This document shows, piece after piece, positions 2,506 to 22,908 of a DNA stretch of 64,000 nucleotides. The translations under genes were made by a program, and so were the position numbers. The notes under the pieces are model-generated. The model did no database searches. It was not told the DNA's origin and saw nothing but the letters and a program-made list of their open reading frames with translations. The stretch is from NCBI GenBank assembly GCA_963723125.1, contig CAVRPQ010000009.1, positions 3,045 to 67,044 of the forward strand. Reading direction: 5' to 3'. This DNA comes from an uncultured bacterium. Lineage in GTDB: Bacteria; Verrucomicrobiota; Verrucomicrobiia; Limisphaerales; UBA11358. Positions within the stretch are counted from its first letter, which is position 1, and every line of letters starts with the position of its first letter.

Positions 2506-2604
2506 TTAGACATTTTTACTGCACCACTCTCGGCGGCCCAATTTGGACCGTCCAAGCGGGCAGTTGCTCAAAACGAGCGCGAGGCTGGGGGCCTTGAGTT
2601 TCAC
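2506..2604 (-). pseudogene. relic signal-peptide cassette at the left end of the first gene string (GTG in place of ATG)
   Basis: The sequence ...gctcaaaacgagcgcgaggctgggggccttgagtttcac matches the cassette consensus. Its start position overlaps the stop of 2601..3764 as GTGA. The downstream reading is short and unrelated to any neighbouring gene. Confidence 0.5.
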
Positions 2605-3764
2605 TTAGATTCAGATTTTTTTAATGCGCGCATTTGGCGCTCCAGTTCGATCTGGCGGTTTTCAAATTCACCAGGGTTCATAATATCCACGCGCGTGCCT
2701 TCTTTGATTATTCCCCGTTGCAGCAAAGTTGGATTCAGCCGGACAATGACTGCACGCCAAGCTGCCATTGCCCGGTTGTTCATGGCTCTTCGTTCGGCTT
2801 CAACAGGCCAATCTTGCCAGCCTGGCCAATAGTAACTAAGTCGGGAAATAATCTTTTTGAGCGTGTCATCCTTTTCCGCCAACAAATAACGATTTCTTTG
2901 AATGACTTGGAAGTAAGCTGGGAAACTCCCTGTCAGCATGTAATCACTGCATATTGTCACATCAGGTTGCGGGTCTGTTTCGTCGGCGTCCATACTGTAT
3001 GGTGTGGTGACATCTTCGCAGTGGAAACGAATTTGCAGTGGCAGTTTATTCGTTGAAGTTGCATTCCACACAACCTGCGATTCAACCGTGTTGTAACCGC
3101 CTTTTGCGGAGCCTTCTTCCGGTCCCTCGCCAAGAAAATGCCAGTGTTTGGAGCGATCTTCCCAGATATAAATCCGCCTGCCGTAATCCGCAAGGCCGTT
3201 GCCCGAAGACATCTCACGCTGCCAACCGATTTCATAGACAGTTCCCAGCCGATCATTTGCCGACTTGATTATGACATAGTTGCCCCGGTCGCCATTGTCG
3301 GCGGCCCAAGGGAGGGCTTTTTGTAATGGCATGTCTGCGCGCAGATTGTAATTCCCAAACTGTCGCCACCAATCTTCACGGCTCCATAAGGCGTCACAGC
3401 CTTCTGTTCTGTCGTCCTTCACTAAAATCCATTGCCCTGATTGATTGGTTGGCTGATAAATGTAAGCCTCGTCCAAAATAAATCTCGGTTGGCCATTGGT
3501 ATCCTTCTCGATCCATATCATGTCGCAACCGTTCCAGGCGAAAGTTGGTCTGACCATTTTGACGAGCGCCAGCCAGCAATCCGCCGATGCGCGAATGGAA
3601 AAACTTTTGCCTAAGCCAGTTATTACGACTCCGTCGGCTAATGGCGAATTCCCGGTTGAATAATCAAAAATCTCCGTTTGAGCGGCAGGCGATGCGCCGG
3701 CGGGAAAAGCGCGAAAGCTGCTGTCCATAACGAGCGCGAAGCAAAGGAGAAGTTTGATTTTCAT
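2601..3764 (-). CDS. exported protein of unknown function (387 aa)
   Basis: Long ORF with the N-terminal signal peptide MKIKLLLCFALV, encoded by a diverged copy of the cassette. A LysM-like C-terminal segment is possible but weakly supported. Confidence 0.7.
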   Translation of the reverse strand: MKIKLLLCFALVMDSSFRAFPAGASPAAQTEIFDYSTGNSPLADGVVITGLGKSFSIRASADCWLALVKMVRPTFAWNGCDMIWIEKDTNGQPRFILDEAYIYQPTNQSGQWILVKDDRTEGCDALWSREDWWRQFGNYNLRADMPLQKALPWAADNGDRGNYVIIKSANDRLGTVYEIGWQREMSSGNGLADYGRRIYIWEDRSKHWHFLGEGPEEGSAKGGYNTVESQVVWNATSTNKLPLQIRFHCEDVTTPYSMDADETDPQPDVTICSDYMLTGSFPAYFQVIQRNRYLLAEKDDTLKKIISRLSYYWPGWQDWPVEAERRAMNNRAMAAWRAVIVRLNPTLLQRGIIKEGTRVDIMNPGEFENRQIELERQMRALKKSESK

Positions 3765-3770
3765 GGCTTG

Positions 3771-4331
3771 TTATTTCACCCGTTCAAAAATCTTGCCGCT
3801 CAATGTATAAACGGTCTCTGGATGCTCGGTAGCGCTGATGTGCCAGGTTGTTACAAATCCAATTTTCCCGTTTGAATTGGTCCATCTGAACGTGTTGCCT
3901 TCACCGATTCCAATCAGTTCAAACCCGTGTTCTTTTCCGTCACCTGTGTAACCTGTCGGCTTGATGAGTGGACGCAAGATATAATAGTCGCCGTTGCCCT
4001 GAGCGCCTCGAATGTGGTCATAAATCCCACCATCATAAAAGTGAGGCGTGACGAGATAAACATAGGGAATCTGATCGTTCACCAAACCCACGATTTCGGT
4101 CGTTGTGTCGGAAGCCATTGCCAAGACCGTGCTTGCATTTTGGGGTACGCCATCGCCGCCATTGGCACGTGAGGCGATAAAAGCATAAAGCTCGCGATAA
4201 TTTTTGAACTGGATTGGCAGCTTTGGATTTGTGTCCGGGTTGTCTGCACTCCAATGCGTCGTCGAGCAACCAAACAAACCGCCGCTTATAATAAGCGCAA
4301 GGCAGGAGAAAAATGCGCTTTTCATGATCAT
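3771..4331 (-). CDS. putative lipoprotein of unknown function
   Basis: The signal MIMKSAFFSCLALIISGGLFGC has a lipobox-like LFGC. The start is chosen at the first ATG; the ORF track begins at an upstream TTG (4346). Confidence 0.65.
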   Translation of the reverse strand: MIMKSAFFSCLALIISGGLFGCSTTHWSADNPDTNPKLPIQFKNYRELYAFIASRANGGDGVPQNASTVLAMASDTTTEIVGLVNDQIPYVYLVTPHFYDGGIYDHIRGAQGNGDYYILRPLIKPTGYTGDGKEHGFELIGIGEGNTFRWTNSNGKIGFVTTWHISATEHPETVYTLSGKIFERVK

Positions 4332-4342
4332 GCAAAGTCGCC

Positions 4343-6115
4343 TCAAAGCGGTATGGCGTATGCCGTGCAGAATTGCTGGAGTTTTTCAGGATCCCCGAAG
4401 AAATAGAGAGTAAACCCATCTTCGGAGGGTACTCCCACGAGCCGCTGCGTCTTCGACGCCTCTTCCAGCGCGGAATTTACAGCAGCCTCAACCGCCTGAA
4501 TGTCATAATCCCGTTGAGAAGCAAAAGTTTCGAATTCATAGAGTTGAAAGCCCACCACAAAACTCACTTGATAAAATTCTTCTTCCAATGGAAGCGGCTC
4601 CAGCGATTTGGCAATGCGTTCCTGATTCAACTTGGCCGTGAATTCAGGATCATTTACCGGCTTTTTAATCGTAACTTGCCGGCAAAATCCGGGCATGAAA
4701 ACTCCGTCGGTGATTCCAGAGAATTTCGCCAGTAAATCGCAATGGTTGGGCGGACGATTCTCGGCTTCGGAGGGGACCTGGCGCAAGATGTTGGCCGCCC
4801 GCAAAACCTCATGAAATATATCCGCATCAACAACAGGCACGGTTTGCTCCTGCCGCACTTTCTCGATCAGCGAATCGTCTGGCACGGTTTCGATCAAGCC
4901 GCATTTTTTGAGGGCTTGCAGCGTATCCTGAATCGTCCAACGGTTCAGTTCCCACATGGCGTGCATTCGGACGGACGGCCATAGCCGGGGTAACTCCGTA
5001 ACGATCAGCGAGCGTCCAGCTTCCTTGCCGTGCTCCAAAATGAGGTCCACGACTGCATTGTTGATGTTAAGATTCTTCCGCTTGGCTGCCAGGGCTTCCA
5101 AGACCAACCGGACGAGTGCATTCCAGTCCTTTTCGGAGGCCGAGATCGCGAAAGCACGCAAAAATGATTTACTCAACGCCCAATGGTCCAAGTGCGGAGC
5201 CAGCCGCTCTACAGCCAGAGATGGTTTTAATCGGGCAATGGCCTCAAGCGCCCTGTATTGGCTCACACTCTCGGTTGCGTGCTCCAAAATAGACTCAAAT
5301 GCTGGCAAGTCCCGGACGATGCCAATTTCACTGAACAATGCCAAGTTCTCCGGCCTGTATTTATGTTTGTTTTCCGAATGAAGAAAGAAATCCTCAATTG
5401 CGCTGCGGGCTTTTGCTGCGATTGCGGAAGATCCGTTTTTGGCGACCTTATTCAGGCCGATAAGGGACCAATGAGAGTCTTCTACGTTTGTGGTTTGATT
5501 CAAAAACTTCAGAACCATGTCAATGTGCTTTTCCGAGCAATCATGTGTTAAAAGCCAAAACGCAACTCGGCTCCGGTTTGGACAATCGTCAGATTCAAGC
5601 AATTTTTCAAAGGCGGGAAGACATCCCTCCACTTTGATAATACCACACGCTTGGATCGCCATGTTGCGAATGCGTGAATCGCTGTCATGCAAAAGTGAAA
5701 GTAACAACTCTTTTTCCGCCTCGTTGCGAGGCGGGGCTTCTTGGACATCCCAATTTAACAACGCCATCCAACGCGATTGCGGGTCTGGATTTCGCAAATG
5801 CGTAATGATGAAATCGTGCCCGGAGAGAACTCCCAAGCGAGCCAGATAGCCGGCAATTCGCATCCGCCGTTCCATGTCGTTTGGCTCTGCGTTCTCAAAA
5901 GACTCAAGTATCTGCGGAACAAATTCTGCCTTCCGACGGGTCAATTCCGGCCAAATTTGCCACGGAGTCCAGCCTTCTTTTTTGAGTGTATCTATTGCTG
6001 CTTCTACGCCTGTGAGCGGTTTAGGGCTGGCTTTAACAGCCTTGACGCGTTCAGTCAATTCAGCCGGCGTCAATTCCCGGATGCGAATTTCGGTTCTAGT
6101 GTTATGCTTCGACAT
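4343..6115 (-). CDS. HEAT/ARM-repeat protein, cytoplasmic (590 aa)
   Basis: No signal peptide. It contains repeated helical-pair segments (e.g. DSRIRNMAIQACGIIK, LLESDDCPNRSRVAFWLL). The assignment is from pattern only. Confidence 0.55.
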   Translation of the reverse strand: MSKHNTRTEIRIRELTPAELTERVKAVKASPKPLTGVEAAIDTLKKEGWTPWQIWPELTRRKAEFVPQILESFENAEPNDMERRMRIAGYLARLGVLSGHDFIITHLRNPDPQSRWMALLNWDVQEAPPRNEAEKELLLSLLHDSDSRIRNMAIQACGIIKVEGCLPAFEKLLESDDCPNRSRVAFWLLTHDCSEKHIDMVLKFLNQTTNVEDSHWSLIGLNKVAKNGSSAIAAKARSAIEDFFLHSENKHKYRPENLALFSEIGIVRDLPAFESILEHATESVSQYRALEAIARLKPSLAVERLAPHLDHWALSKSFLRAFAISASEKDWNALVRLVLEALAAKRKNLNINNAVVDLILEHGKEAGRSLIVTELPRLWPSVRMHAMWELNRWTIQDTLQALKKCGLIETVPDDSLIEKVRQEQTVPVVDADIFHEVLRAANILRQVPSEAENRPPNHCDLLAKFSGITDGVFMPGFCRQVTIKKPVNDPEFTAKLNQERIAKSLEPLPLEEEFYQVSFVVGFQLYEFETFASQRDYDIQAVEAAVNSALEEASKTQRLVGVPSEDGFTLYFFGDPEKLQQFCTAYAIPL

Positions 6116-6148
6116 TTTAAAATAACTCGTTCGGCTCGTTTTCGAGGT

Positions 6149-6718
6149 TTACGATGGCGATTGCCAGAACCATAATTTCTTCTCTTGTAACTTGATGGCA
6201 TCGTCGGTAATTCGTTGATTGTTCAATCCGCCATGCGCGGCAATCATTTTTTCGATAAGCTCTTCTTGCTTTAGCCAGTCAGACCTTGGCTTCGTATCAA
6301 ACGAAACGCGCGACAGCCACGAAGGTACGCTGGCTTTATTTAGGCTGAAATCAAAAGCGACCGCCCTGACCGGCTTATCGCCCACAGTTTTAGTGATCAT
6401 CGAGCAAACAAATATTTCACCATCTTTTGTCCATTGCCCGCTGGAAAAATAAGCGTCCGGCGCCCACCAAACATTGGCAACGAATTGCGGCCTTCGCCCG
6501 GCCGGTTTTACGCAGAATGACAAATCTCGATCCAGAAATCCGCCATCATAAAACCATACTTTATTTTCCGGATCGGCTGGTGAATCAAACACTGCGCGCC
6601 TGCCATCGTCCCAGTTCAAAATAGTCTGTTTTGCGAAAAGCCAAACGGACAGGCATCCAATCAATACCATCAGGGACGCGGCCATGAGAAAACGCTTTGA
6701 TTTAGGGAATGACATCAT
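6149..6718 (-). CDS. membrane-anchored protein of unknown function (189 aa)
   Basis: N-terminal hydrophobic anchor FLMAASLMVLIGCLSVWLF. The start overlaps the upstream stop by 4 nt. Confidence 0.6.
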   Translation of the reverse strand: MMSFPKSKRFLMAASLMVLIGCLSVWLFAKQTILNWDDGRRAVFDSPADPENKVWFYDGGFLDRDLSFCVKPAGRRPQFVANVWWAPDAYFSSGQWTKDGEIFVCSMITKTVGDKPVRAVAFDFSLNKASVPSWLSRVSFDTKPRSDWLKQEELIEKMIAAHGGLNNQRITDDAIKLQEKKLWFWQSPS

Positions 6719-7857
6719 TTGAACAAATGTCGGTTCTTCCGAACGTAATCCATCGTTTTGCGGTAAAGCCGTTCATCTGTTGAAAGGTCAGAGTGGTCGG
6801 TGAAATCAAATTCGCGTGCATAAAGTTTGTTTTCGGTCTCCTCATCCAAGGCTACGTAATCAGCATCGAGATCAAATGGATCTCGCCCTATGGTTCGACC
6901 ATACTCGCGCATGATGGTAATGCACTGCCACAGTTCCCTAGCGAAAGCAGGCTCGTCTATCGCATCCATCAATTCAGCACATGGCACGAGTGCCCACCGC
7001 GCGTTACCATCGAAGGTATTAATGCCATTCGTCAGACAATTGCCTGTGAAATCCGAAAGTGATAGAACCCTCAATTCTATGGGTGATAGTTTGCGGAGAC
7101 CATGCTTTTGGATGGCAGCACACAAAGCCCAATATGCCTTTTCCAAATTTTCCATTTTAAGAAAATCATCCACGTTGTAATTGAATTGCTCAACTTCGGT
7201 GACCGGTTCAAGTAGTTTGGCAAGTGGCGCACGGCCTTCAGACCGGTCGTAAGCGTAATGGAGTGCCTTTTTTCCGTCTCGCGTTCTGCGATTGGGATCA
7301 GCGCCTTTTGCAAGAAGCAATTCAACGATTTCCGGACTGCCCCGCCGGGTCGCCTCTTGCAACAACGTATGCCCCGCCAAATCAACCGTTCGATTGGGGT
7401 TTGCCCGAAACGCCAACAGTAACCTGACAATCTGAACCTTGTCCGTAAACATGGCATTTTCCATCAATCCCTTCAGGTCCGGCAAAACGCCTTGGTTCAA
7501 GCATTCCCTTAATTTGTCAGTCTCTCCCTTGTACGCATAAATTGTGGCGTCTAACTCAATAGTTTTCAAAAATGGGCTGATGGTGTGCGTGAAATGAACC
7601 TTCGGGTACAATTCTAGCGATTTGTAAAACGTCGGTCGCTGCCACTTGAGCCGCTTTTCGGCCAGATACCAGCGCAGTTTTTTCCAGAACTCGTACAGCT
7701 TCACCAGCACGAGCAAGGGGAGCAATAGCAGATTGAGCAGATAGGATTTGGCAGATGTTCTTTTCATTCGGCGACGACTCGCGTCCAACATTTTCGAAAT
7801 TGTGTATTCAACATCTTGGCCTTCGTGCATCCATTTGTGGTCAAAAACGTTCGTCAT
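6715..7857 (-). CDS. ankyrin-repeat protein with an N-terminal TM segment and a C-terminal helical domain
   Basis: ANK consensus segments ([37 protein letters not shown]) and the TM segment LLNLLLLPLLVLV. Confidence 0.7.
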   Translation of the reverse strand: MTNVFDHKWMHEGQDVEYTISKMLDASRRRMKRTSAKSYLLNLLLLPLLVLVKLYEFWKKLRWYLAEKRLKWQRPTFYKSLELYPKVHFTHTISPFLKTIELDATIYAYKGETDKLRECLNQGVLPDLKGLMENAMFTDKVQIVRLLLAFRANPNRTVDLAGHTLLQEATRRGSPEIVELLLAKGADPNRRTRDGKKALHYAYDRSEGRAPLAKLLEPVTEVEQFNYNVDDFLKMENLEKAYWALCAAIQKHGLRKLSPIELRVLSLSDFTGNCLTNGINTFDGNARWALVPCAELMDAIDEPAFARELWQCITIMREYGRTIGRDPFDLDADYVALDEETENKLYAREFDFTDHSDLSTDERLYRKTMDYVRKNRHLFK

Positions 7858-9347
7858 GGCGCAATTAAGCGGAAGAAGATATTACTCGGCGACAGCGGGA
7901 TAATGATATTATTGCCTGTCTCATTGGTGATGACCGGGAAATCAGACGTTACCCAGTTTGTAGTGTTTAAGTCGCCGTTTTGCTGCAAGACAAAGCCGCT
8001 TGAAGGGTATGGCCACGAAACAGAGATGCTGTTGCTCATATTCGTGATGGTCAACGCGACGAGCGGATTGAATGGTACGGTAAATGTCGTGACAGTTCTG
8101 GAAGGTAATGTAAGCCGGAAAATGTTGGAATCGGTCACGCCGGCAATTCCGGTGGTCGTACCGCTGGAGGTCCACTGAGTGTAGCTAACATTTCCGGTGA
8201 TTTCTCCGCTCATCAGACGAAAACCATAATCGTTGTAAACGTTAGTGCTGTCGTTGATCGCCCACACAACCAGACGTGAGGCTGTAACAAAGGCGCGGGT
8301 GATTAATTGACCGGGCATTGAGGCGCTTGGACCGTCAATGTCATCCATGTAAATGGGACGGGTATTGAGGAGGTTGGTCGTGAGGGCCAACTCCATTTGG
8401 GCTTGAATAGCACCCGCGTCTCCAAAAGCCCACCAGACGTAAGCGCTTAGTCCGCTATCGGTGCCATCAAAAATGGCGCCAATGTTCTGCTGTGCCTCGT
8501 CAATTGCGTCAGCAGGACTGCTCAGTTCTTGCCAATGCACTTCACTGTTCCAGACCGGGAGGTTGCCCGCCAACTGCACCAGGCTCTGCAACTTGCCGAT
8601 GGGGCGGTTCTGCGGGTAATAGTGAGTCCCGACGATGCTCAGGAGGCTGCTCCACCCGTTCATGTTCATGTTCGTCAACCAATTGGTATCGGGAGCGTAA
8701 CTTTCCGGTCCGATCAGCGCCTTGGGCATCACGAAGCCTCGGCTGACGGACAGGGAGGCAAGATTTGTAACAATTTGATCAAAGACGGACGCGGTAATAT
8801 TGCCTTCGTTATAGGTGCGCTCGTTATCTAATCCCAGGACATCAATTGTAAAACCGTTGCTTTGCATGAATTGCAAATAATCGGCCAACATCGCGGCATA
8901 CTGGGACGGGATCACTCCGTTGCTGTTCTTCGTCCACGCTGGAAAGCTGTTCTGGCCATCCAGCTTCTTGCTGGCTAACAGAATCACGTTGCTGTTGGCA
9001 GCGCGGCCATTGGTCATGGCGTAAAGAGTGTCGCCATAATAACTCCCAATCACGACACCTGAAGATGGATGGGCGGGGTCAGCGGCATCGCCGTAGATCG
9101 GAATGCGTAAGCAGTTCATTCGGTCGGTGACAAAGAGAGTTTGCGCGTAATCCGGTGTGACGCCCGCTGCTTTTCCGCCCTCTTTGATGTCATAGCCCCA
9201 ACCTGTGATAAGTTGCCCTTGCATCGTCGGATCAATGATCGCGTCTCCACCAGTGGCCGCCGAGCCGGACAAGGGCACAAGAGGAGCAACACTCAAGATT
9301 GCTGCGGCGAAACAGCGTCGTGTCCAGAGAATGAGTTCACATTTCAT
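7854..9347 (-). CDS. secreted glycoside-hydrolase-like protein (clan GH-A / GH30-like by pattern) with a C-terminal beta-sandwich tail ending FFRLIAP
   Basis: Signal peptide after the ATG at 9347. LGLDNERTY and VWNSEVHW resemble the acid/base and nucleophile strands of (beta/alpha)8 glycosidases. The family assignment is unverified. Confidence 0.45.
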   Translation of the reverse strand: MKCELILWTRRCFAAAILSVAPLVPLSGSAATGGDAIIDPTMQGQLITGWGYDIKEGGKAAGVTPDYAQTLFVTDRMNCLRIPIYGDAADPAHPSSGVVIGSYYGDTLYAMTNGRAANSNVILLASKKLDGQNSFPAWTKNSNGVIPSQYAAMLADYLQFMQSNGFTIDVLGLDNERTYNEGNITASVFDQIVTNLASLSVSRGFVMPKALIGPESYAPDTNWLTNMNMNGWSSLLSIVGTHYYPQNRPIGKLQSLVQLAGNLPVWNSEVHWQELSSPADAIDEAQQNIGAIFDGTDSGLSAYVWWAFGDAGAIQAQMELALTTNLLNTRPIYMDDIDGPSASMPGQLITRAFVTASRLVVWAINDSTNVYNDYGFRLMSGEITGNVSYTQWTSSGTTTGIAGVTDSNIFRLTLPSRTVTTFTVPFNPLVALTITNMSNSISVSWPYPSSGFVLQQNGDLNTTNWVTSDFPVITNETGNNIIIPLSPSNIFFRLIAP

Positions 9348-15774: not shown

Positions 15775-16449
15775 CTAGTCATCAACTTTGAACACCTTAT
15801 TGAAGTTTGACTGTCGATGTAATACCTGCTGTTCCTGGGGATTCAGCGGGTCCGCGCGAATATGCAACGTCACTCTGAATTCTGCATTCGTTGGCAGATA
15901 TGTAGCTGAGCCGGCAATCGGAATTGCGGTGCCATAACGTAATTCCATGACCAGGTATTCCTTCCCGCTTTCAAGTTTGCCTGTTGTGGGCACTCTAATA
16001 TCGCAGCCTGAACTTGACCCCTGCGGTGCCTTGTCGATCCACAGGAGACCGAGACTTCCGAAGATCTTCACTTTGCCCTGTGGCTTGTCTGGATTTATCG
16101 CATCCGGATCAACCATACCAAGTTGGAAAAATTCAGTGCCGACGGCCAGCGACGTGCCGCGAATCTGTCGTGAAGATATTGCCTTATCGAGCACTCCGTT
16201 CCGGTAAACCCGACACGTTACAGATAATTTCATGGACGATGGGTAATTAACTGCGACTTGCCGCTTCCAAAGACCTAAAGGGATTTCAAGCTGGGTGTCC
16301 GTATCTGAAGGGGTTTCCGAAACAACGACACTGTTTTGATAATTCGTCACATTTGTAACGGCGTTAGTTTGCGGCAATCGTGTTGAAACGCAGCCCGTTA
16401 AAGAGCCACCCAAAACCAGCGCGAGGCAGAGGAAGAGTTTGGGGTTCAT
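15775..16449 (-). CDS. putative lipoprotein of unknown function (224 aa)
   Basis: Cassette signal MNPKLFLCLALVLGGSLTGC. Confidence 0.7.
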   Translation of the reverse strand: MNPKLFLCLALVLGGSLTGCVSTRLPQTNAVTNVTNYQNSVVVSETPSDTDTQLEIPLGLWKRQVAVNYPSSMKLSVTCRVYRNGVLDKAISSRQIRGTSLAVGTEFFQLGMVDPDAINPDKPQGKVKIFGSLGLLWIDKAPQGSSSGCDIRVPTTGKLESGKEYLVMELRYGTAIPIAGSATYLPTNAEFRVTLHIRADPLNPQEQQVLHRQSNFNKVFKVDD

Positions 16450-17162
16450 GGTTTAGTTTTACTTTCGAATGGATCAGACTTTTCGACGGGGATTGGACCC
16501 TTAGCGCCACCGCCAGATTTCGACCCGTCCTCCACTATCGGTTTCAAGAGTTTGACCATCTGCTTCTCTGAATATGGTTTGTACGCTTTCCATTTTCCGT
16601 AGCCGTCAGAGATCGGGATTAATATGTCATCTGAATTTCCATGAAGCCAAATCATTGGGAATTCCATGCCGCCATAAGTTAAATAGCGAAATTCGTAATC
16701 GTGGTCATTAACCTGCGGCAGTCGTCCAGCTTTTTCCAATGCCACCCATATCGGATCCTGTTGTCCTTTGAGTGCCGCACCAGAGCATATGAAGCCGCCA
16801 AAGGACCAATGATTTGTATCCCAGGCCAGCTCCATCACCCCAACCATATTCGTTCCGCACATCATCAGATAGTTCCACCCGAGGGACGTTGAATCCGTGG
16901 AAGGGAGCAACTTTCCGGACAATACGGAGTGATAATCAACCCGATACCACTTAAACCCATTTGTTACGTTTAGTTTGTCTATTTGAAAATGCTTTGGGGC
17001 AAATCCGGGATTTACGTCGTGATAGAACGAAACAGTCTCCTGATAGGCAATGGCACGATATGTTTCCGATTGTTTCGGAAAAATGACACCGGCACCGCAA
17101 TTTTCAATGAGCGTGGTACCGCTCAAAACGAGCACGAGGCAGAGGGGGAGTTTTGAGTTCAT
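16446..17162 (-). CDS. exported protein of unknown function, paralog of 12190..13089
   Basis: Cassette signal MNSKLPLCLVLVLSG, with the conserved C-terminal motifs listed under 12190..13089. Confidence 0.7.
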   Translation of the reverse strand: MNSKLPLCLVLVLSGTTLIENCGAGVIFPKQSETYRAIAYQETVSFYHDVNPGFAPKHFQIDKLNVTNGFKWYRVDYHSVLSGKLLPSTDSTSLGWNYLMMCGTNMVGVMELAWDTNHWSFGGFICSGAALKGQQDPIWVALEKAGRLPQVNDHDYEFRYLTYGGMEFPMIWLHGNSDDILIPISDGYGKWKAYKPYSEKQMVKLLKPIVEDGSKSGGGAKGPIPVEKSDPFESKTKP

Positions 17163-17252
17163 GGCATGTGTTACGGAGTGTTCGATATACTCATCTCTTT
17201 CAAATCCATAGAAATGCGGCGAGCCAGAAACTTTCTGTTGTTTCCATACAAT

Positions 17253-18437
17253 TTATTCGTGGCCGCCATGTTGCCGCAATAGGTCTGCCACCTCATCGTA
17301 CCACTTCTTTGACTGCAGACTGTAACTTCGACCCTTCGTCATATCCAAAGGCGTCCTGCCGCGATTGTCCTTTGCATTCGCGTCCGCGCCATTTGCCAAG
17401 AGCAATGTCGTGACATCCACGGAACCGTTCACCGCTGCAGAATGCAAAGGCGTCTCTCCACCATTGTCCTTGGCATTAACATCCGCTCCCTTCGCCAACA
17501 GCAACTTTATCATGTCTGTGTGTCCTCTGGAAAAGGCCGTGAGAAACAAAGGGGTCTCGCCTTTGTTGTTCTTGGCATTGACATCGGCTCCTTTGGCCAA
17601 CAGCAATGCTACGGTATCCGTACGGAAAGATTCCGCTGCGTAATGTAATGGCGTATTACCTCGATTGTCCTTGGTGTTGAAGTCAGCTTTATTCGCCAGT
17701 AGCAATTTCACCATGTCAGCTCGGCTATTTCTCGCCGCGGCGTGTAAAGGTGCCTCGCCGTCGTTGCCTGTGGCGTTAACATCTGCTCCATTGGCTAACA
17801 ACAATTCCGCCACATCTTTGTGTCCCGTCAAAGCCGCCCAATACAAAGGTGTCTTACTGTCGACAGACCTGGCATCGACATCGGCTTTATTTGCCAGAAG
17901 AAATTTCACGATGTCCGTGCGGTCATATAACGCAGCCATGTGTAAAGCCGTCTCGCGGTACAAACCCGGGCCACCGTCGTTGTCCTTACTATTCACCAAG
18001 TCAGGGTTGGCATTCACCAATTTCTTGACCTTTTCCAAATCACCATCCGCTGCCGCTTCAAAAATCTCGCTATTGTAAATGACTCTGAAGGAATTCCTGC
18101 TGGTGCTCAATTTGGATAAAAGCCTGCGAGCTTCCGCTGCTTGATGTTGGTCAACATGAACGTCACACCACCCGCCGGAAGAGGTGCCAATTGTAAAAAT
18201 ACCATGCCGATGTAGCGCGTGGCTTATCAATTTTTCGCTGGCCTTGTCAGACATCTTATAACTCGCAACCAGAACCATGTGAGTGCCAGGTGGTAGCTCG
18301 ACACGTGGTGCCGCAGGTGTTGCCGACTGGAATAAATCAGGTGCGCCGCAACCAGACAAAACTATGGCTGCAACACACACAAGCATCATCGGTCGAATTT
18401 TCATGAGTGCGAGGCAGAGGAGAAATTTGGGCTTCAT
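17253..18437 (-). CDS. exported ankyrin-repeat protein carrying a cassette fused in frame to a second lipoprotein signal
   Basis: MKPKFLLCLAL, then MKIRPMMLVCVAAIVLSGCG, then about seven ANK units. The ORF-track extension to 18515 reads through the 3' end of the upstream gene and is not credible. Confidence 0.75.
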   Translation of the reverse strand: MKPKFLLCLALMKIRPMMLVCVAAIVLSGCGAPDLFQSATPAAPRVELPPGTHMVLVASYKMSDKASEKLISHALHRHGIFTIGTSSGGWCDVHVDQHQAAEARRLLSKLSTSRNSFRVIYNSEIFEAAADGDLEKVKKLVNANPDLVNSKDNDGGPGLYRETALHMAALYDRTDIVKFLLANKADVDARSVDSKTPLYWAALTGHKDVAELLLANGADVNATGNDGEAPLHAAARNSRADMVKLLLANKADFNTKDNRGNTPLHYAAESFRTDTVALLLAKGADVNAKNNKGETPLFLTAFSRGHTDMIKLLLAKGADVNAKDNGGETPLHSAAVNGSVDVTTLLLANGADANAKDNRGRTPLDMTKGRSYSLQSKKWYDEVADLLRQHGGHE

Positions 18438-18447
18438 GGTTTGATAA

Positions 18448-18972
18448 TCAAGGACCAACCTCAAATGGAATGGACTCAACTCGCAATTCCAACCAGTCTT
18501 CGCGGCTCGGCCCAACCGGCCAAACGATGTTTGAGACCGTCAGGGAATAATTGCCCGGTACCAATTGAAAATACAGTCCAAGATCTATAGTTGTTTCCAC
18601 CGAACGGCCCGGGTGCAACATGCCGTGTGGTTGAGGGGCGCTTGCCGCCAACACAGCGGTGGTGCGAGACCCTGGACTCATAAAGACATCTGACGCTTTC
18701 TTGGATCTGGGGACATCCTTGCCTTCAGCACTTTTTACCTGAATTGAGGTGGACCGTTCCCACCAGTCGAGCGCAATTGCCTTCGAACGGTCGTTCTCGA
18801 TCTTCAGATGCACGGGTATCGGTCGGGCAGGAGCGTTTTGCCCCGGCAAGGAAACTTTGAAAGTTACATTTTCAAGGGTACGTTCTTTTACGACCGCGTG
18901 TTGCGTCGTGACACAACCAAAAAGCCCTCCGCTCAAAACGAGCACGAGGCAGAGGAGGAATTTTGGCTTCAT
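18448..18972 (-). CDS. putative lipoprotein (174 aa), near-duplicate of 21035..21559
   Basis: Cassette signal with LFGC. I count about 19 differences in 174 aa against the other copy by manual alignment. Confidence 0.75.
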   Translation of the reverse strand: MKPKFLLCLVLVLSGGLFGCVTTQHAVVKERTLENVTFKVSLPGQNAPARPIPVHLKIENDRSKAIALDWWERSTSIQVKSAEGKDVPRSKKASDVFMSPGSRTTAVLAASAPQPHGMLHPGRSVETTIDLGLYFQLVPGNYSLTVSNIVWPVGPSREDWLELRVESIPFEVGP

Positions 18973-18990
18973 GGTTTTGCACTGTCAGAA

Positions 18991-21024
18991 TTATTGCCAT
19001 CCATTCGCCCCAGCTATTATATCCTTTTGATTGAGTTCCGTGAATTCGTCTGCAGTCACATAATAGAGTTTGTCGCTCAATTGGACGAAATGGTCGTGAA
19101 TCTTACCGGAATAGCAGTGTGGGAATTGCCCCTGCCAATGGGCGACCAGTTTGCCATCCTGAACGTCCACTGCGTAGAACGTCCGAACCCAGGCGTGCCC
19201 GCTTTGGAGTAGCGACTCGTTCGCATTATGCCACGTATCGGGAGGATATGCCTCAGCCACGGAAAAGATGATGAGCTGGGGCATCAGCGCAATTCCCAAA
19301 AATTCGCCATCGCCGGGACCAGGAATCTCCCAAAGCTTTTTCCCTGCGTTCCAGTCAATCAGTTCGTACGGGCCGGATTGGAATCCGAGTCTGGTCGAGA
19401 ACAGGGCCTGGCAGGTCTCTGGAATCCACCCAAGGAACTCAGGATTGGGGCTGATTTCCAGAGAATGATGCAAACCGGCGGCGGTGAACCAAAAGAAGGT
19501 GTTTTGATTTGTGCCGGTGTTGGGACGCAGCAGTACACCCGCGCCCTTGGGGGCGACAATGGGAGACCAAACACCCGGCCCGCAGTCGGCCTGAAACCGA
19601 ATCTGGCCGTTTGTGTTCAGCGCAACGATTTGCGCATGGACCAGCTCCCGAGACGAGAGTTTTTCGCGCAAGGCATCGCCGCTTACCGGCACGTTGCTTT
19701 GCATATTGGTTTTGGTGATCAAGAAAGCCGCGCTGCCATCGTCATTCAATGCCACATCGCTGACGGAATATTGCCAAAATGGGCCAATGGTGTTGACCTG
19801 CTTGCCATGAGCGTAAAAGTCCACCGCGATCTGGCCTAACTTGGGATGACGTTCGTGAACGAGAACACGGCTGTCAGCGGTTGAGGTAATGTAGCCGGCA
19901 AGTCCCATGTCACTCGGTCCGCGCGGCAAGGTGATTTGCCAGTCCTCGTTGATTCCCTGAATCATTTGCGTCCGACCCGAGATGTCAACAAACCCCGGCT
20001 GAATGTCGCTGACCGCAGTCTCGTGTTCAATATTCCCGTCTTTGGCAAACCAAGTCATCGTGGTCTTCCCGAATTCGGTAGTTGCTTGGACATACGGAGC
20101 AACCCAATAGGTATCAATTTGTCCTCCACTTGCGCCCGGCAAATCGGATGGCCACTCCGATGGGGGTGGACCCTTGACATGGACAATAGGCTGTTCGGCT
20201 TCGACTTCTCCATTGGTGTTTACCCTGAATCTCCACTCGCCAATTGCCTGCAAGGTGAACTCGACGGAATACGCCGAACCCAGGTTCGTCACGGACACGG
20301 ATCGTTGGCCAAACATTCCGGATCCCGAATGTCCCCCCTCCTGGCCCACCGCTGGCCAGCCCCACCACCAATTCCCGGTGTCCCGGATCTTTTCAGGCAG
20401 TTCGTTCCAAGCAAGGCTTTCCGCCCAAGAGACATTATTCACCGGTGCGTCCACAAAGCGGATACTTTGCAGCAGGGCCATCACCTTCTGGCGGTTTTCT
20501 TTCGTTGCCGGTTCCTTCATGCAGGCCTGGATGGACCATCGTTGTCCTCGCTTGAAAAAACTGAGGCTGTAACTTAATTGCCCTTTTGAAGAAAAGGCCC
20601 TCAACTGATTCGTCGCCAGAAAGGAACGCAAATCCTCTCCTACATTATCGACCCTCATTTTCACTCCCATAGGACCGCCCGCATAGCCAATTGAAATATA
20701 CACCTCATCAGGTTGGAGTTGCGTGATGTGATTATTGCATATCCATGTCCCCTCCCATCCCTCGAATGCCAGGCCAGGCCGCTGATTGTTAATCGTCAGA
20801 AAGACGTAGTCATAATGGCTTACCGGAAAACTTGTTTCCCTTGCCACCCAGCCCTGCGGAAGGATCAATTGAAACCCATATTGCGCATTATGATAAATAT
20901 CCCCGACCAGTTGCGCTGATGGACTGGACGTAATCGTGCTTGCCTCCGCTCTAGCAAGGTTGCAGCAGCAAAAGAAACCGGGGCTCAAAACGAGCGCGAG
21001 ACCGAGGAGAAGTTTGGAGTTCAT
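18991..21024 (-). CDS. large exported protein of unknown function (~677 aa)
   Basis: Cassette-type signal MNSKLLLGLALVLSPG after the ATG at 21024. The upstream 26 codons in the ORF track are read-through of the duplicated junction. Confidence 0.7.
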   Translation of the reverse strand: MNSKLLLGLALVLSPGFFCCCNLARAEASTITSSPSAQLVGDIYHNAQYGFQLILPQGWVARETSFPVSHYDYVFLTINNQRPGLAFEGWEGTWICNNHITQLQPDEVYISIGYAGGPMGVKMRVDNVGEDLRSFLATNQLRAFSSKGQLSYSLSFFKRGQRWSIQACMKEPATKENRQKVMALLQSIRFVDAPVNNVSWAESLAWNELPEKIRDTGNWWWGWPAVGQEGGHSGSGMFGQRSVSVTNLGSAYSVEFTLQAIGEWRFRVNTNGEVEAEQPIVHVKGPPPSEWPSDLPGASGGQIDTYWVAPYVQATTEFGKTTMTWFAKDGNIEHETAVSDIQPGFVDISGRTQMIQGINEDWQITLPRGPSDMGLAGYITSTADSRVLVHERHPKLGQIAVDFYAHGKQVNTIGPFWQYSVSDVALNDDGSAAFLITKTNMQSNVPVSGDALREKLSSRELVHAQIVALNTNGQIRFQADCGPGVWSPIVAPKGAGVLLRPNTGTNQNTFFWFTAAGLHHSLEISPNPEFLGWIPETCQALFSTRLGFQSGPYELIDWNAGKKLWEIPGPGDGEFLGIALMPQLIIFSVAEAYPPDTWHNANESLLQSGHAWVRTFYAVDVQDGKLVAHWQGQFPHCYSGKIHDHFVQLSDKLYYVTADEFTELNQKDIIAGANGWQ

Positions 21025-21034
21025 GGTTTGATAA

Positions 21035-21559
21035 TCAAGGACCGACCTCAAATGGAATGGACTCAACTCGCAATTCCAACCAGTCTTCGCGACTCGGCCC
21101 AACCAGCCAAACGATGGTTGAGACCGTCAGGGAATAATTGCCCGGTACCAATTGAAAATGCTGTCCAAGATCTATAGTTGTTTCGCACGAACGGCCCGGG
21201 TGCAGCACGCCGCGTGGTTGAGGGGCGCTTGCCGCCAACACAGCGGTGGGGCGAGACTCTGGACTTATAAAGACATCTGACGCTTTCTTGGACCTGGGCA
21301 CATCCTTGCCTTCAGCACTTTTTACCAGAATTGAGGTGGACCGTTCCCACCAGTCGAGCGCAATTTCCTTCGAACGGTCGTTCTCGATCTTCAGATGCAC
21401 GGGTATCGGTCGGGCAGGAGTGTTTTGCCCCGGCAAGGAAACTTTGAAAGTTACATTTTCAAGGGTGCGTTCTTTTACGACCGCGTGCAGCGTCGTGACA
21501 CAACCCAAAAGCGCTCCGCTCAAACCGAGCGCGAGGCAAAGGAGGAGTTTGGGTTTCAT
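21035..21559 (-). CDS. putative lipoprotein (174 aa), near-duplicate of 18448..18972
   Basis: See 18448..18972. Confidence 0.75.
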   Translation of the reverse strand: MKPKLLLCLALGLSGALLGCVTTLHAVVKERTLENVTFKVSLPGQNTPARPIPVHLKIENDRSKEIALDWWERSTSILVKSAEGKDVPRSKKASDVFISPESRPTAVLAASAPQPRGVLHPGRSCETTIDLGQHFQLVPGNYSLTVSTIVWLVGPSREDWLELRVESIPFEVGP

Positions 21560-21562
21560 AAA

Positions 21563-22495
21563 TCAAAGATGTATATCCGGGTCTGAATCTACAATTTCGC
21601 CTTTGGTGTTATAGAACGCTCCATCTTTCCCAACGTAGAGCCATGAGAAGTTGCTACCCCAATCCTCCGGGGCTAAAGTTAGGATTCCATTGCCAAAGGC
21701 AACCTTGATAATGCTTCCGGTCGCCAACTGAAGTTTGCCCAACTCGGAAAGTTTTTCGTCGAAGTGAATCGTGATGACTTCGCCGGGCTTTTCATAATGA
21801 ATCCATCCAAGCGCCGTCGGCAAAGGTTTTATGAGTTTGACGGTGATTGACCGCAATATACCAGATGTCTTATGAATGCGAATGACCTTGCCTTCAATCC
21901 CGAAGATGTGTGAAGTGATTTTACCATTCGTTCCGTTTCCATTCGTTCCGTTTTCTTTTAGTCCATATCCACTAAACGATTCAACTCCTTCTTGTTGCTC
22001 AATCGTTCGATAATAGAAACCGTCTTCAATGTAGGCAAAGCGCAGCGTTTTGGTGTCGAGAACAAAATCAGTCCAAGCAATACGTCCCCAAGGCACTTCC
22101 ACAAACAGCATTTTGTCATTCAGCCAAGTGTGACGAACCGAGTAGCAGGCATGGTCAAGCAATTCCACGCAAACACACCGATTTGTGTCGACAGAATTAA
22201 AAATGTAAAGCCGCGTATTCCATGGTGCGTCACGCGTCCAGTCCGGCCATACTTCAAGCAGCAATGGCGGATCAATTCCCCCTTTGTCTTCTGGTGACAA
22301 TCCGTGCCCCTCCAAAGCCAATTTAGCCAATTGCTCGCCCGTCAGAGAAATTCGTTCGATTTTGATTTTCTGCAAACTTTCGGAAGAAGGTTTGGAATAT
22401 GTGACGGCTTCCTGCCGGGTCGGTTCGATTGTTGAACAGCCGAACAACCCGCCGCATAAAACAAGCGCGAAGCAGGGGAGGAGTTTGGGGTTCAT
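21563..22495 (-). CDS. putative lipoprotein, paralog of 14500..15396
   Basis: Signal MNPKLLPCFALVLCGGLFGCS with full-length collinearity to 14500..15396. Confidence 0.7.
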   Translation of the reverse strand: MNPKLLPCFALVLCGGLFGCSTIEPTRQEAVTYSKPSSESLQKIKIERISLTGEQLAKLALEGHGLSPEDKGGIDPPLLLEVWPDWTRDAPWNTRLYIFNSVDTNRCVCVELLDHACYSVRHTWLNDKMLFVEVPWGRIAWTDFVLDTKTLRFAYIEDGFYYRTIEQQEGVESFSGYGLKENGTNGNGTNGKITSHIFGIEGKVIRIHKTSGILRSITVKLIKPLPTALGWIHYEKPGEVITIHFDEKLSELGKLQLATGSIIKVAFGNGILTLAPEDWGSNFSWLYVGKDGAFYNTKGEIVDSDPDIHL

Positions 22496-22513
22496 TTGTC
22501 GGGCGGGAGAATC

Positions 22514-22822
22514 CTAATCATAAAATCCCGAGAATATAGTCGAATGAACAAAAAGCAAACACGTGAGTATCAAGCTTGCGAGTGGTAGCCAGAACAGCCG
22601 CCACTGTTTGAATTTGATGGTTTCGAGAAGAACTGTCAGCCCAAAGATGCCGCTGACCAGAAAGGTAACAAGCGGGAGCAGCCCAATATTCCGGCCACCC
22701 ACCGGCCTGTGCAAAAGCAGCTGACCGGTGCTGGCCTCACTGCACAAAATATACGCGGTAAGCGGCAGGGCCAAACTCGCCCAAGATGACCACTTGAGAA
22801 AATTGATTTTTGATGGGTTCAT
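22514..22822 (-). CDS. small membrane protein (102 aa)
   Basis: Three hydrophobic spans. The N-terminus MNPSKINFLKWSS is similar at nucleotide level to the start of 10389..11207. Confidence 0.55.
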   Translation of the reverse strand: MNPSKINFLKWSSWASLALPLTAYILCSEASTGQLLLHRPVGGRNIGLLPLVTFLVSGIFGLTVLLETIKFKQWRLFWLPLASLILTCLLFVHSTIFSGFYD

Positions 22823-22908
22823 GACGCCTGGATAATAGCCGCATTATAATTGAGGCCAAGTAAACCGCTCAAAACGGGCGGGAGACAGAGGAGGAGTTTG
22901 AGGTTCAT
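22819..22908 (-). other. orphan cassette mini-ORF (29 codons) translationally coupled to 22514..22822
   Basis: MNLKLLLCLPPVLSG... with the cassette consensus. Its TGA overlaps the downstream ATG as ATGA. Confidence 0.55.

Follow-up and report, generated by a model that had tools for sequence, protein, structure and literature searches.

A signal-peptide cassette conserved at the nucleotide level heads unrelated genes in one-directional arrays of peat and soil Verrucomicrobia

Integrons consist of IntI, attI and folded attC sites, the latter being imperfect inverted repeats that form single-strand hairpins at the 3' end of the cassette ORF. The rAID-1 arrays of Bacteroidales are one-directional, hold up to tens of small, unrelated genes separated by non-coding intergenic repeats, carry a conserved XerD-family recombinase, and have hypervariable contents and a structure that suggests active gene acquisition (bioRxiv 10.1101/471110). 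In the vpma genes of Mycoplasma agalactiae and the vsp genes of M. bovis, the 5' region of the lipoprotein genes, signal peptide included, is highly conserved, even across species, and the remainders of the genes have no significant homology; recombination near the shared region reshuffles the expressed gene, using sites in the 5' UTR (-1 to -72), an adjacent Xer-type recombinase gene, and inversions of genes lying in both orientations onto a single promoter (PMC2268961). A highly conserved stretch inside every ORF of the Staphylococcus aureus lpl genes is a site of homologous recombination (Tsuru and Kobayashi, 2008). Heterogeneous polyimmunity loci line up small proteins of unrelated structure in tandem, HEAT, ankyrin, LRR and NTF2-fold members among them, and the APD1/2 effectors of Amoebophilus have C-termini that vary behind a common signal peptide, lipobox and N-terminal module (Zhang et al., 2012, PMC3482391). 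We found no published description in the literature of a cassette like the one reported here.

The 64 kb of DNA analyzed, which we refer to as the window, contain 17 copies of a 44-nt cassette between positions 2561 and 22908, all on the minus strand (17 co-oriented copies versus 0 expected). The original prediction was that the cassette recurs at the head of about 17 genes facing the same way; the copy number and the orientation were confirmed, with 13 copies heading genes and four being short orphans. Sixteen copies have no more than 12 mismatches to the 44-mer and start at 22908, 22495, 21559, 21024, 18972, 18437, 17162, 16449, 15772, 15384, 14497, 13661, 13089, 12193, 11279 and 3764, with zero copies at that threshold on the plus strand or in the rest of the 64 kb; three matches have three mismatches or fewer, compared to 0 expected from shuffles. 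The 17th, at 2604, is an orphan that has degenerated and starts with GTG; with it the window array ends on its 3' side, and an additional diverged copy heads the gene starting at 4325. Two of the predicted cassette starts needed adjustment: 15396 is a gene start, but the cassette begins four codons further in, at 15384, and the copy at 18437 is present, but its match is limited to the first ~33 nt. The features of the array, in descending coordinates, are:

22966-23196, minus strand: ankyrin gene fragment at the array 5' edge, 84% aa identity to the 3' part of the 17253-18437 gene
22865-22908, minus strand: orphan cassette with 4 mismatches; 29-aa ORF whose stop overlaps (ATGA) the start of a 102-aa membrane-protein gene, 22514-22822
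21563-22495, minus strand: 310-aa lipoprotein gene, cassette 22452-22495; paralogue of the 14500-15396 gene (66% aa)
21035-21559, minus strand: 174-aa lipoprotein gene, cassette 21516-21559; 91% identical to the 18448-18972 gene
18991-21024, minus strand: 677-aa protein, cassette 20981-21024; no Pfam, NCBIfam or PDB match
18448-18972, minus strand: 174-aa lipoprotein gene, cassette 18929-18972
17253-18437, minus strand: 394-aa ankyrin-repeat protein, partial cassette 18394-18437
16446-17162, minus strand: 238-aa protein, cassette 17119-17162; distant paralogue (38% aa) of the 12190-13089 gene
15775-16449, minus strand: 224-aa lipoprotein of a singleton family, cassette 16406-16449
15729-15772, minus strand: orphan cassette; 13-aa ORF whose stop overlaps (ATGA) the start of a 113-aa membrane-protein gene, 15393-15734
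14500-15396, minus strand: 298-aa lipoprotein gene, cassette 15341-15384
13658-14497, minus strand: 279-aa protein with a weak Wzz-like N-terminus (E = 7e-4, under the Pfam cut-off), cassette 14454-14497
13092-13661, minus strand: 189-aa lipoprotein, cassette 13618-13661
12190-13089, minus strand: 299-aa protein, cassette 13046-13089
11276-12193, minus strand: 305-aa secreted protein, cassette 12150-12193; predicted C-terminal NTF2-like fold (AlphaFold model, pLDDT 69)
11236-11279, minus strand: orphan cassette, 17-aa ORF, 18 nt upstream of the ankyrin gene 10389-11207
4343-11207, minus strand: co-directional genes without a cassette that interrupt the array, coding for proteins of 590 aa (HEAT repeats), 189 aa (membrane), 380 aa (ankyrin), 542 aa (its only match, to a xylanase model, being weak and under threshold) and 272 aa (ankyrin)
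3771-4325, minus strand: 184-aa lipoprotein gene with a strongly diverged cassette (MKSAFFSCLALIISGGLFGC)
2601-3764, minus strand: 387-aa protein with no family match, cassette 3721-3764 with 10 mismatches
2561-2604, minus strand: terminal orphan cassette; its GTG start and the stop codon of the gene before it overlap (GTGA); core GCCTCGCGCTCGTTTTGAGC intact

The ankyrin gene downstream of the orphan at 11236-11279 has a membrane-anchor N-terminus of its own.

SPII signal peptides have a positively charged n-region, a hydrophobic h-region and a lipobox, L-x-G/A-C. The cassette peptide, M-K/N-P-K-L-L/I-L-C-L-A-L-V-L-S-G, is usually followed by G-L-F-G-C, and the consensus MKPKL(L/I)LCLALVLSGGLFGC has all three of these features. 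A lipobox-like motif was found in 134 of the 150 top leader-profile matches, and some members (e.g., 12193) have an A-x-A type site in its place. The cassette is read as the 5' end of a predicted lipoprotein or secretory signal-peptide coding sequence, and the proteins would be exported. Its limits of conservation are sharp, at about -4 and +50; sequence 5' of the ATG is not conserved, and conservation is strongest 16-43 nt downstream of the ATG, where constraint is equal across all three codon positions. In 161 copies that were found by peptide motif and lack the exact search core, leucine is CTC in 79-95% at five positions, at four of them in at least 90% (background 15%), and TTG in 93% at a sixth (background 30%); alanine is GCG in 95% (30%), valine GTT in 98% (34%) and serine AGC in 88% (20%). 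Codon entropy, 0.1-0.4 bit within the cassette, rises to 0.6-0.9 over the lipobox and to 1.7 directly after it. Constraint that is uniform over codon positions would fit an RNA or a protein-binding site equally well.

Mature regions downstream of the cassette had been described as otherwise unrelated, which proved somewhat overstated. About 10 unrelated mature families and three paralogue pairs (13089/17162, 15396/22495 and 18972/21559) make up the 13 cassette-headed genes, and no relatives within the array were detected for the genes at 3764, 12193, 13661, 14497, 16449 and 21024; the ankyrin protein at 18437 is related to the cassette-less ankyrins of the window. The predicted domain assignments fared differently: the ankyrin call is solid, the NTF2-like call for the 12193 gene is supported at the level of fold, and the Wzz-like call corresponds to a Pfam match that is present but sub-threshold. 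Across the contig set, 291 cassette-headed ORFs fell into 93 blastp clusters. A 96-member Pfam census included HEAT, LysM, ankyrin, WD40, serpin, TPR and LRR folds, and the majority of the cargo had no match in Pfam, PADLOC or PDB. No Imm Pfam families were among the matches of the window proteins or the 25 commonest of the 88 families in the census, and no toxins were found in the surroundings of the array. The cargo resembles binding and inhibitor proteins of the periplasm or surface, and may be a polyimmunity-like repertoire.

Also found to carry the same string were 14 loci in Verrucomicrobiota/Limisphaerales MAGs, long-read assemblies among them, and at least 120 metagenome contigs, for a total of 401 copies on 133 contigs. 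These loci were collected by exact 26-mer, and the sample is therefore biased towards consensus copies; among homologues of the 12193 gene found via the mature region, several leaders are clearly diverged. Mixed cassette orientation was seen in 0 of 108 multi-copy contigs, and a leader profile retrieved 287 protein clusters (50% identity), all matched at or near the N-terminus. In peat and soil Verrucomicrobia, scores of unrelated genes, arranged in one-directional arrays, begin with the cassette. The comparison contigs are mostly short-read assemblies, in which a repeat of 44-60 nt could give chimeric joins, but the long-read MAG contigs and the recovery of the same array from four independent samples speak against such joins as a general cause.

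Homology blocks between contigs begin and end at cassettes, and near-identical contigs part exactly at the 3' end of a cassette. An 89%-identical block in one contig (L011) spans the window cassette at 13618-13661 through the next cassette, and two arrays of a single long-read MAG (L003/L006) have one unit that is 98% identical, with identity extending from ~+30 of one cassette to ~+28 of the next. Among HSPs with an identity of 95% or more, three of four true left ends fell at -5 to -4, and nine of 13 true right ends at +32 to +50 of a cassette. Junction pairs were homologous upstream only in 182 cases, downstream only in 219 and on both sides in 47; along the cassette, linkage to what lies upstream has disappeared by ~+5 to +15 and linkage to what lies downstream begins at ~+38 to +44. 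Cargo pairs at 70-85% aa identity shared neighbours in 0/40 and 3/44 comparisons. Between the same chromosomal anchors, VWA(-SIMPL) and histidine kinase genes, at least four different cargo sets were found, with anchor genes at 73-86% nucleotide identity between hosts, and a terminal orphan cassette closes many arrays. These patterns support a 5' module that behaves independently of its cargo, and together with the differing cargo folds they uphold the view that this is not a decaying paralogue family. None of the three conditions set out as refuting the original prediction was found to hold: cargo folds differ, copies are clustered, and there are structural variants with breakpoints in cassettes.

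Comparison with the described systems indicates partial likenesses to each of them. As in vpma and vsp, a conserved 5' lipoprotein signal region heads dissimilar genes, but the 5' UTR is unconserved here, the copies are co-directional, there is no linked recombinase, and the cargo comprises at least 93 unrelated families in place of repeat-rich antigens. The unit geometry of lpl is the same as that inferred for the cassette arrays: a conserved inner nucleotide block is the breakpoint, such that the unit of inheritance spans two adjacent genes. The lpl genes, however, are full-length paralogues in one species, whereas here the 44-nt leader alone is shared, the cargo is unrelated with no ORF-wide paralogy, and the consensus is common across genera. 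With polyimmunity loci the arrays share a tandem arrangement of unrelated proteins with overlapping fold families, and with APD1/2 a shared N-terminal module; they differ in the lack of Imm families among the cargo matches listed and of nearby toxins, and nucleotide-level conservation of a leader is absent from the description by Zhang et al. (2012). With rAID-1 and integrons they share one-directional, repeat-punctuated arrays of unrelated genes with hypervariable content, and, as in integrons, these genes appear to be promoterless, judging from 4-nt overlaps and gaps of 2-18 nt. With regard to the known or predicted immunity genes to which rAID-1 array genes are homologous, ankyrin, HEAT, LRR and NTF2-like folds occur in the cargo here, Imm families are absent from the matches listed, and most cargo is unannotated. 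There is no XerD-family recombinase at the head of the array and no IntI-type recombinase adjacent and divergent to it; the repeat is itself translated, giving the following gene its signal peptide, whereas that of rAID-1 is non-coding, and unlike attC it is coding, at the 5' end of the next ORF, with no attC-like fold found. The window does encode a tyrosine recombinase (29653-30675), 7 kb from the array with RadC and STAND genes standing between them. As a candidate IntI or Xer it was rejected, being generic and far under the IntI and Xer cut-offs (25.7 bits versus a cut-off of 220 for the archaeal XerA equivalog model NF040815, the product name of which includes "integron integrase").

The conservation of silent sites, the unrelated genes, and the breaks at cassettes suggest that the cassette is probably both an export signal and a recombination handle. 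In our best reading, to which we assign a probability of about 0.5, it is a predicted signal peptide whose DNA doubles as a portable identity block where co-directional arrays of exported-protein genes would recombine, with a logic like that of integrons and rAID-1 and no integrase detected. Of the three options originally offered, the best fit is the recombinogenic 5' cassette that follows integron or immunity-island logic, on the basis of cassette-bounded homology, rarely conserved neighbours, different cargo sets at conserved anchors and frequent terminal orphan cassettes, but neither an array-linked integrase or XerD-type recombinase nor an attC-like fold was found. Homogenization by gene conversion, another option, has modest support from an array (L139) with the same T21G variant in 7/7 copies, and from a slightly higher similarity among copies of one array outside the ascertained core (2.47 vs 2.71 mismatches, reached in 3 of 1000 permutations), but local conversion alone leaves the consensus across genera unexplained.

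It seems quite unlikely that the arrays are a dedicated site-specific system of the integron or rAID type, in which an unlinked recombinase, recognizing the ~28-nt core (TCCTCTGCCTCGCGCTCGTTTTGAGCGG), would insert or excise cargo units there, with the terminal orphan cassette as the chromosomal attachment site. Such a system would account for the uniform conservation of the core over all codon positions, the n+1 cassettes per array with a terminal orphan adjoining conserved anchor genes, the single-unit transfer bounded inside cassettes, and one universal consensus across hosts whose anchors have diverged, and a tyrosine recombinase is encoded 7 kb away. That recombinase is the generic one described above, however, and none, of integrase or XerD type, recurs beside arrays in the 133 contigs, where housekeeping genes flank them; apart from a 5-bp stem the cassette lacks dyad symmetry, its fold is not significant, linkage suggests crossovers dispersed over the cassette and not at one point, and an array-wide core variant, T21G, is tolerated. 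An ordinary family of exported paralogues, in which the DNA plays no special part and the signal peptide is kept by recent duplication, codon preference and protein-level selection, is very improbable. Some neighbours are true paralogues, the peptide is plausible as a lipoprotein signal, and leaders of some homologues have diverged, but cargo folds as different as ankyrin, HEAT, WD40, serpin, LysM and NTF2-like occur over the 93 clusters, codons that are not preferred, such as CTC with its 15% background, are 90-98% fixed, homology blocks terminate at cassettes, and the core is kept in orphans that no longer head a protein (1.40 core mismatches per 28 nt versus 1.35 in intact genes).

Selection on RNA, the third option, would make recombination at cassettes a by-product of their identity; the cassette might be a re-initiation or translational-coupling platform for promoterless genes without Shine-Dalgarno sequences, the site of a common regulator (sRNA or protein) that makes one regulon, or a processing site of polycistronic transcripts. 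Compatible with this are the abutting genes, where the upstream stop overlaps the cassette's own ATGA at 81 of 267 junctions and most others are 2-20 nt away, and the orphans, 13-50-aa ORFs that retain the core and end at or near (mode -4) the start of a downstream membrane-protein gene. No Shine-Dalgarno-like motif was evident by eye in the ~110 nt upstream of window cassette starts, constraint is equal at the three codon positions, and a CGCUC/GAGCG stem shows a few compensatory changes. We nonetheless consider this explanation unlikely: the predicted fold is no better than shuffles (z = -0.9 to -1.2), an Rfam search gave no match, overall pairing of the stem equals the independent-site expectation and its double changes may have a single origin, no sequence complementary to the cassette occurs elsewhere in the window, the strongest conservation lies away from the initiation region, and cargo shuffling and terminal orphans are not accounted for by RNA function itself. 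More broadly, it is tentatively possible that the cassette is the recognition site of a putative dedicated machine, either an unlinked capture recombinase (an "export integron" with a translated att site) or an RNA processing or regulatory factor. If true, either would represent a new class of system for gene capture or operon control, building a diversifiable repertoire of periplasmic or surface proteins in soil Verrucomicrobia.

If the cassette is, as we favour, a signal peptide that doubles as an identity block, any two copies could exchange, within an array, between arrays, or with incoming DNA, and each exchange would delete, duplicate, replace or insert single cargo units, always restoring an intact leader. 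The pathway would most simply be RecA-type homologous recombination, since crossover points appear to be spread along the cassette; at 44 nt, the block of identity is close to the shortest that RecA recombines efficiently in E. coli, and the value for the host may differ. The outcome would be hypervariable arrays at fixed chromosomal sites, or, for the window array, on a conjugative-element or defence island. Units with a consensus cassette would recombine most readily, an argument from selection for recombination proficiency, and local conversion would add to this, such that the 44 nt would stay near one consensus, silent sites included, while the cargo diverges freely. Because the genes abut, translation is probably coupled, and orphan cassettes may be scars of exchange events, short upstream ORFs that would pass ribosomes to genes with their own membrane anchor, or both. 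In an isolated two-gene array (L135) the cassettes have decayed to 10-16 mismatches, as expected if ongoing exchange, and not absolute functional need, maintains their identity.

Searching the window with the 44-nt cassette, a stretch that codes for the predicted start of a lipoprotein signal peptide, returned 16 copies at up to 12 mismatches, all of them on the minus strand within 3721-22908 and none on the plus strand or in the remaining 41 kb, in keeping with the single orientation of the original prediction; at up to 3 mismatches there were 3 matches to the 44-mer, with 0 expected from shuffles. Thirteen copies head genes, and others are orphans, which head only a short ORF with no cargo protein behind it. 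The orphan anticipated at 2604 is real and degenerate, with a GTG start and GCCTCGCGCTCGTTTTGAGC retained, and it overlaps the stop codon of the preceding gene. Genes of the array meet in 4-nt ATGA or GTGA overlaps or in gaps of 2-18 nt, with a single exception of 90 nt, and scanning the array for promoter and terminator consensus sequences showed neither to be enriched (23 found against 18.5 expected, and 21 against 24.9). Most mature regions had been described as unrelated to one another; by mature-region blastp this holds for six singletons, the others being one ankyrin protein and three pairs of paralogues.

Features of the cassette array in the window
22908, 15772, 11279 and 2604: orphan cassettes heading short ORFs of 13-30 aa
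3771-4325: gene headed by a more diverged cassette
13089 and 17162, minus strand: paralogue pair, 38% aa identity
15396 and 22495, minus strand: paralogue pair, 66% aa identity
18972 and 21559, minus strand: paralogue pair, 91% aa identity

In the diverged cassette of the 3771-4325 gene (4282-4297), CGCTT-ATTAT-AAGCG replaces CGCTC-GTTTT-GAGCG, a compensatory change from C-G to T-A that keeps a small stem. The cassettes at 18437 and 21024 have almost the same ~80 nt 5' of them (18394-18520 and 20981-21105), because each comes after a copy of a duplicated 174-aa gene, and one upstream unit is joined to two cargoes, a 394-aa ankyrin protein (18437) and a 677-aa protein (21024); this pair illustrates a cassette breakpoint inside the window. 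An ankyrin gene fragment at the 5' edge of the array (22966-23196) has 84% aa identity to the C-terminal part of the 17253-18437 gene and a 3' flank that resembles that gene's, and is probably the remnant of a truncated unit beside a STAND gene.

Conservation of the cassette extends to its synonymous sites. Codons were counted in 161 copies that were found by peptide motif, without the exact search core, with the same genes as background; as the loci had been retrieved by exact core, consensus copies are over-represented.

Codon use in the cassette and in the background
Leu, five positions: CTC 79-95% (at least 90% in four of five), background 15%
Leu, sixth position: TTG 93%, background 30%
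Ala: GCG 95%, background 30%
Val: GTT 98%, background 34%
Ser: AGC 88%, background 20%

Third codon positions carry roughly as much information as the first two. Information content stays high between about -4 and +50 of the cassette and is zero outside, and codon entropy climbs from 0.1-0.4 bit within the cassette through 0.6-0.9 across the lipobox to 1.7 at the residue after it. The 28-nt core is preserved equally well in orphans, where no protein follows it any longer (1.40 mismatches vs 1.35 in intact genes). Homologues of the 12193 protein that were collected through their mature region include several with clearly diverged leaders, and an isolated two-gene array (contig L135) has cassettes at 10-16 mismatches, so the constraint is strong, yet not universal.

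A leader profile built from 11 window N-termini and searched against 1.84 billion proteins matched 287, each representing a 50%-identity cluster, at or close to the N-terminus in every case; a lipobox-like continuation was present in 134 of the best 150 matches, with the consensus MKPKL[LI]LCLALVLSGGLFGC. The cargo behind these leaders is diverse: 124 mature regions from the profile matches fell into 71 blastp clusters, and 291 cassette-headed ORFs of at least 70 aa in the collected loci fell into 93. Pfam recognised HEAT, LysM, ankyrin, WD40, serpin, WG-repeat, TPR and LRR domains in a minority of the loci cargo and no domain in most. Searches of nine cargo proteins against NCBIfam (no family besides a single weak xylanase-like match), of 96 cargo representatives with PADLOC (ankyrin-type matches only) and of four cargo proteins against PDB sequences (nothing meaningful) added little. 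Among the domains originally assigned in the window array, ankyrin repeats were recovered, the Wzz-like N-terminus stayed below threshold and nothing else was recognised by Pfam or NCBIfam; the NTF2-like assignment is backed by an AlphaFold model of the 12193 protein (pLDDT 69), the C-terminal domain of which matches NTF2-fold structures at target-normalised TM-scores of 0.6-0.7. These domain types (ankyrin, HEAT, LRR, TPR, WD40, serpin, LysM, NTF2-like) point to exported proteins with binding or inhibitory roles. The arrays recall heterogeneous polyimmunity loci (PMC3482391), but there was no immunity family among the cargo domain matches listed.

An IUPAC search found the cassette at 14 loci, distributed over about 10 species-level MAGs that bear the labels Verrucomicrobiota, Verrucomicrobiae or Limisphaerales, on contigs of which several span hundreds of kb to 2.3 Mb (MFD bins); we infer that a few short cassette contigs in differently named bins are mis-binned. 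Each 8-kb MAG locus holds 2-5 copies heading different ORFs. The exact 26-mer core matched at least 120 metagenome contigs and no viral contigs, and the collected sequence as a whole contains 401 copies on 133 contigs, none of which has cassettes in mixed orientation, at gene-sized spacings of 340-2000 nt. One pair is separated by only 61 nt, and some ORFs hold two tandem leaders, such as MKPKLILCLALVLSGKPKLILCLALVLSGGLFGC (profile matches P0002 and P0003), and both arrangements may have been left by unequal exchange or represent array slots without cargo. The genomes that carry the loci are not closely related, with an anchor gene common to several loci at 73-86% nucleotide identity between most of them. 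Literature searches found no published description of this leader or these arrays, and an exact-protein look-up of one window gene matched no record.

The original prediction had proposed a search for structural variants with breakpoints in the cassettes, and homology between contigs often ends there. Judged from the ends of inter-contig HSPs, 61% of 754 left ends lie at -20 to +19 of a cassette and 46% of 790 right ends at +20 to +59; among HSPs of at least 95% identity with ends internal to both contigs, left ends fall at -5 to -4 in 3/4 and right ends at +32 to +50 in 9/13. Some contig alignments run at 99.4-99.8% identity through the last base of the cassette and are unrelated directly afterwards. 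At cross-contig junctions homology was found only upstream in 182 pairs, only downstream in 219 and on both sides in 47, and variable cassette positions lose their linkage to the upstream side by about +5 to +15 and gain linkage to the downstream side from about +38 to +44. Neighbouring genes are seldom retained:

Common neighbours of gene pairs
Pairs at 70-85% aa: downstream neighbour common in 0/40, upstream neighbour in 3/44
Pairs at ≥95% aa: downstream neighbour common in 5/5, upstream neighbour in 5/8

One 249-aa unit, 98% identical, occurs in two separate arrays of one long-read MAG; no collinear high-identity contig pair with a clean single-unit indel was found. Conserved anchor genes, VWA(-SIMPL) on one side and a histidine kinase on the other, enclose differing cargo among loci.

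Array content between VWA(-SIMPL) and histidine-kinase anchors, by contig
L033/L136-138: six units
L009/L105: two units plus orphans
L041, L056: one unit each
L087, L092, L111: other cargo sets

The L033-type array is identical in four independent assemblies. Arrays commonly terminate in an orphan cassette immediately 5' of a conserved flanking gene, as the window array does at 2604. Most contigs are short-read assemblies, in which a repeat of 44-60 nt could produce chimeras, but the long-read contigs, replicated arrays and two-anchor comparisons argue that the pattern of array breaks is biological.

The simplest account of these results, to which we give a probability of roughly 0.5, is that the DNA of the leader doubles as common homology for the exchange of single-gene units. 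The cassette would then be a lipoprotein or secretory leader at whose DNA units are exchanged, duplicated and lost by crossovers spread along its length, and the exchange process itself would maintain its identity, through local conversion and the preferential spread of consensus-ended units. Local homogenisation exists: mismatches at positions 3-17, outside the ascertained core, average 2.47 within arrays and 2.71 overall, a small excess of similarity reached in 3/1000 permutations, and in L139, an array located by way of its cargo, T21G is present in 7/7 cassettes; a first comparison within and between contigs showed no array-specific similarity and was masked by exact-core ascertainment. 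The shuffled arrays, the unrelated cargo and the conservation at nucleotide level rule out an ordinary family of exported paralogues, an explanation we find hardly credible.

Either of two other processes would account for the uniform constraint at least as directly as homologous exchange. If selection acted on the RNA, for coupling or re-initiation, a common regulator or transcript processing, the frozen synonymous sites would follow; we consider this unlikely, as the whole window had no Rfam match at the gathering threshold, the cassette folded no better than shuffles on either strand, and its only stem (5 bp, CGCTC-GTTTT-GAGCG) pairs across copies as expected from independent sites. Repeated compensatory doubles were confined to the pair 29/41, where eight A-T changes in about four loci may share a single origin. 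The lack of a better-than-shuffle fold also weighs against a dedicated, unlinked site-specific recombinase acting on the cassette, which seems to us rather improbable, since no recombinase recurs near the arrays of the 133 contigs, the flanks of which are housekeeping genes (carB, hemN, accD, aldose epimerase, fucosidase and glycine-cleavage genes). The tyrosine recombinase of the window (29653-30675) is generic, resembling neither IntI nor Xer, and between it and the array lie the genes for RadC and a 1719-aa STAND NTPase.

Known systems share the logic of these arrays, but each has defining features that are absent here. Mycoplasma vsp/vpma loci have a conserved 5' UTR and signal peptide in otherwise dissimilar genes, across two species, and undergo inversions mediated by Xer1, the recombinase being adjacent (PMC2268961), whereas the present arrays have neither inversions nor a linked recombinase. 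In rAID-1 arrays and integrons unrelated genes are set apart by repeats and accompanied by a linked recombinase (bioRxiv 10.1101/471110); our arrays lack that recombinase and an attC fold. In the lpl genes of S. aureus a conserved intragenic block is a site of homologous recombination and the unit of inheritance covers two genes (PMC2568036), but the cargo described here is not paralogous.

If exchange at the leader is the correct reading, a short translated sequence would have two roles, in the exit of proteins from the cytoplasm and in the entry of genes into arrays, and would admit any gene that carries it to hypervariable arrays common to several genera, a simple, integrase-free route to the modular evolution of exported proteins. 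The sequences predict that Verrucomicrobia abundant in peat and soil have an extensive, unannotated set of secreted proteins or lipoproteins that seems to turn over rapidly. At least 93 of its cargo clusters come from the loci, the protein library has 287 (at 50% identity), and a probe of 26-44 nt would recover this repertoire from metagenomes. The cassette also offers a natural test case for second-order selection for recombinability versus RNA function in the freezing of synonymous sites.

Behind 72 of 93 orphans there is an ORF of 80 aa or more that starts within -97 to +124 nt of the orphan's stop, most commonly in an ATGA overlap; the encoded proteins mostly start with a membrane segment of their own and belong to families that recur across contigs. 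Two families of small membrane proteins, of 102 aa (22514-22822) and 113 aa (15393-15734) in the window, recur within the arrays of many contigs (also L019, L036, L035, L042, L062 and L017), always preceded by an orphan cassette ORF ending at or near their start codon, and may be conserved array components. A membrane protein family of 420-545 aa with the N-terminus M[TN]ESSKSKLWWFVGLFFRL... occurs repeatedly in arrays, directly after a conserved 21-aa orphan ORF (MKPKLLLCLALVLSGEMNELV; L099, L007, L131, L065, L051, L089 and L124).

Immediately upstream of the window array and co-directional with it is the nSTAND1-type STAND NTPase gene, followed by genes for a RadC-like JAB protein, the divergent generic tyrosine recombinase and a DUF6232 protein (23203-30675); these neighbours place the window array in a defence or mobile island, unlike the housekeeping context of the other loci. 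A CRISPR array at 41369-42980 has 22 repeats of 36 nt (ATTTCCGCGCGCGCACGCGCGCGGCCCCGTTGAAGC) and spacers mostly of 35-42 nt, none of which matched cassettes or arrays; one interval of 81 nt probably conceals a degenerate repeat. Type I cas genes adjoin it, including Cas3 (31605-34016) and a Cas4-Cas1 fusion (39085-40869), and a complete Wadjet anti-plasmid system (JetA, JetB/DUF4194, JetC and JetD; 43345-49954) lies directly downstream of the CRISPR-Cas locus. Two conjugative relaxase-type genes, at 59-2110 and 60305-63115, bracket the window, one encoding a full TrwC relaxase-helicase of 936 aa and the other a helicase-only paralogue of 683 aa without the relaxase domain, which suggests an integrative conjugative element or a plasmid-derived region.
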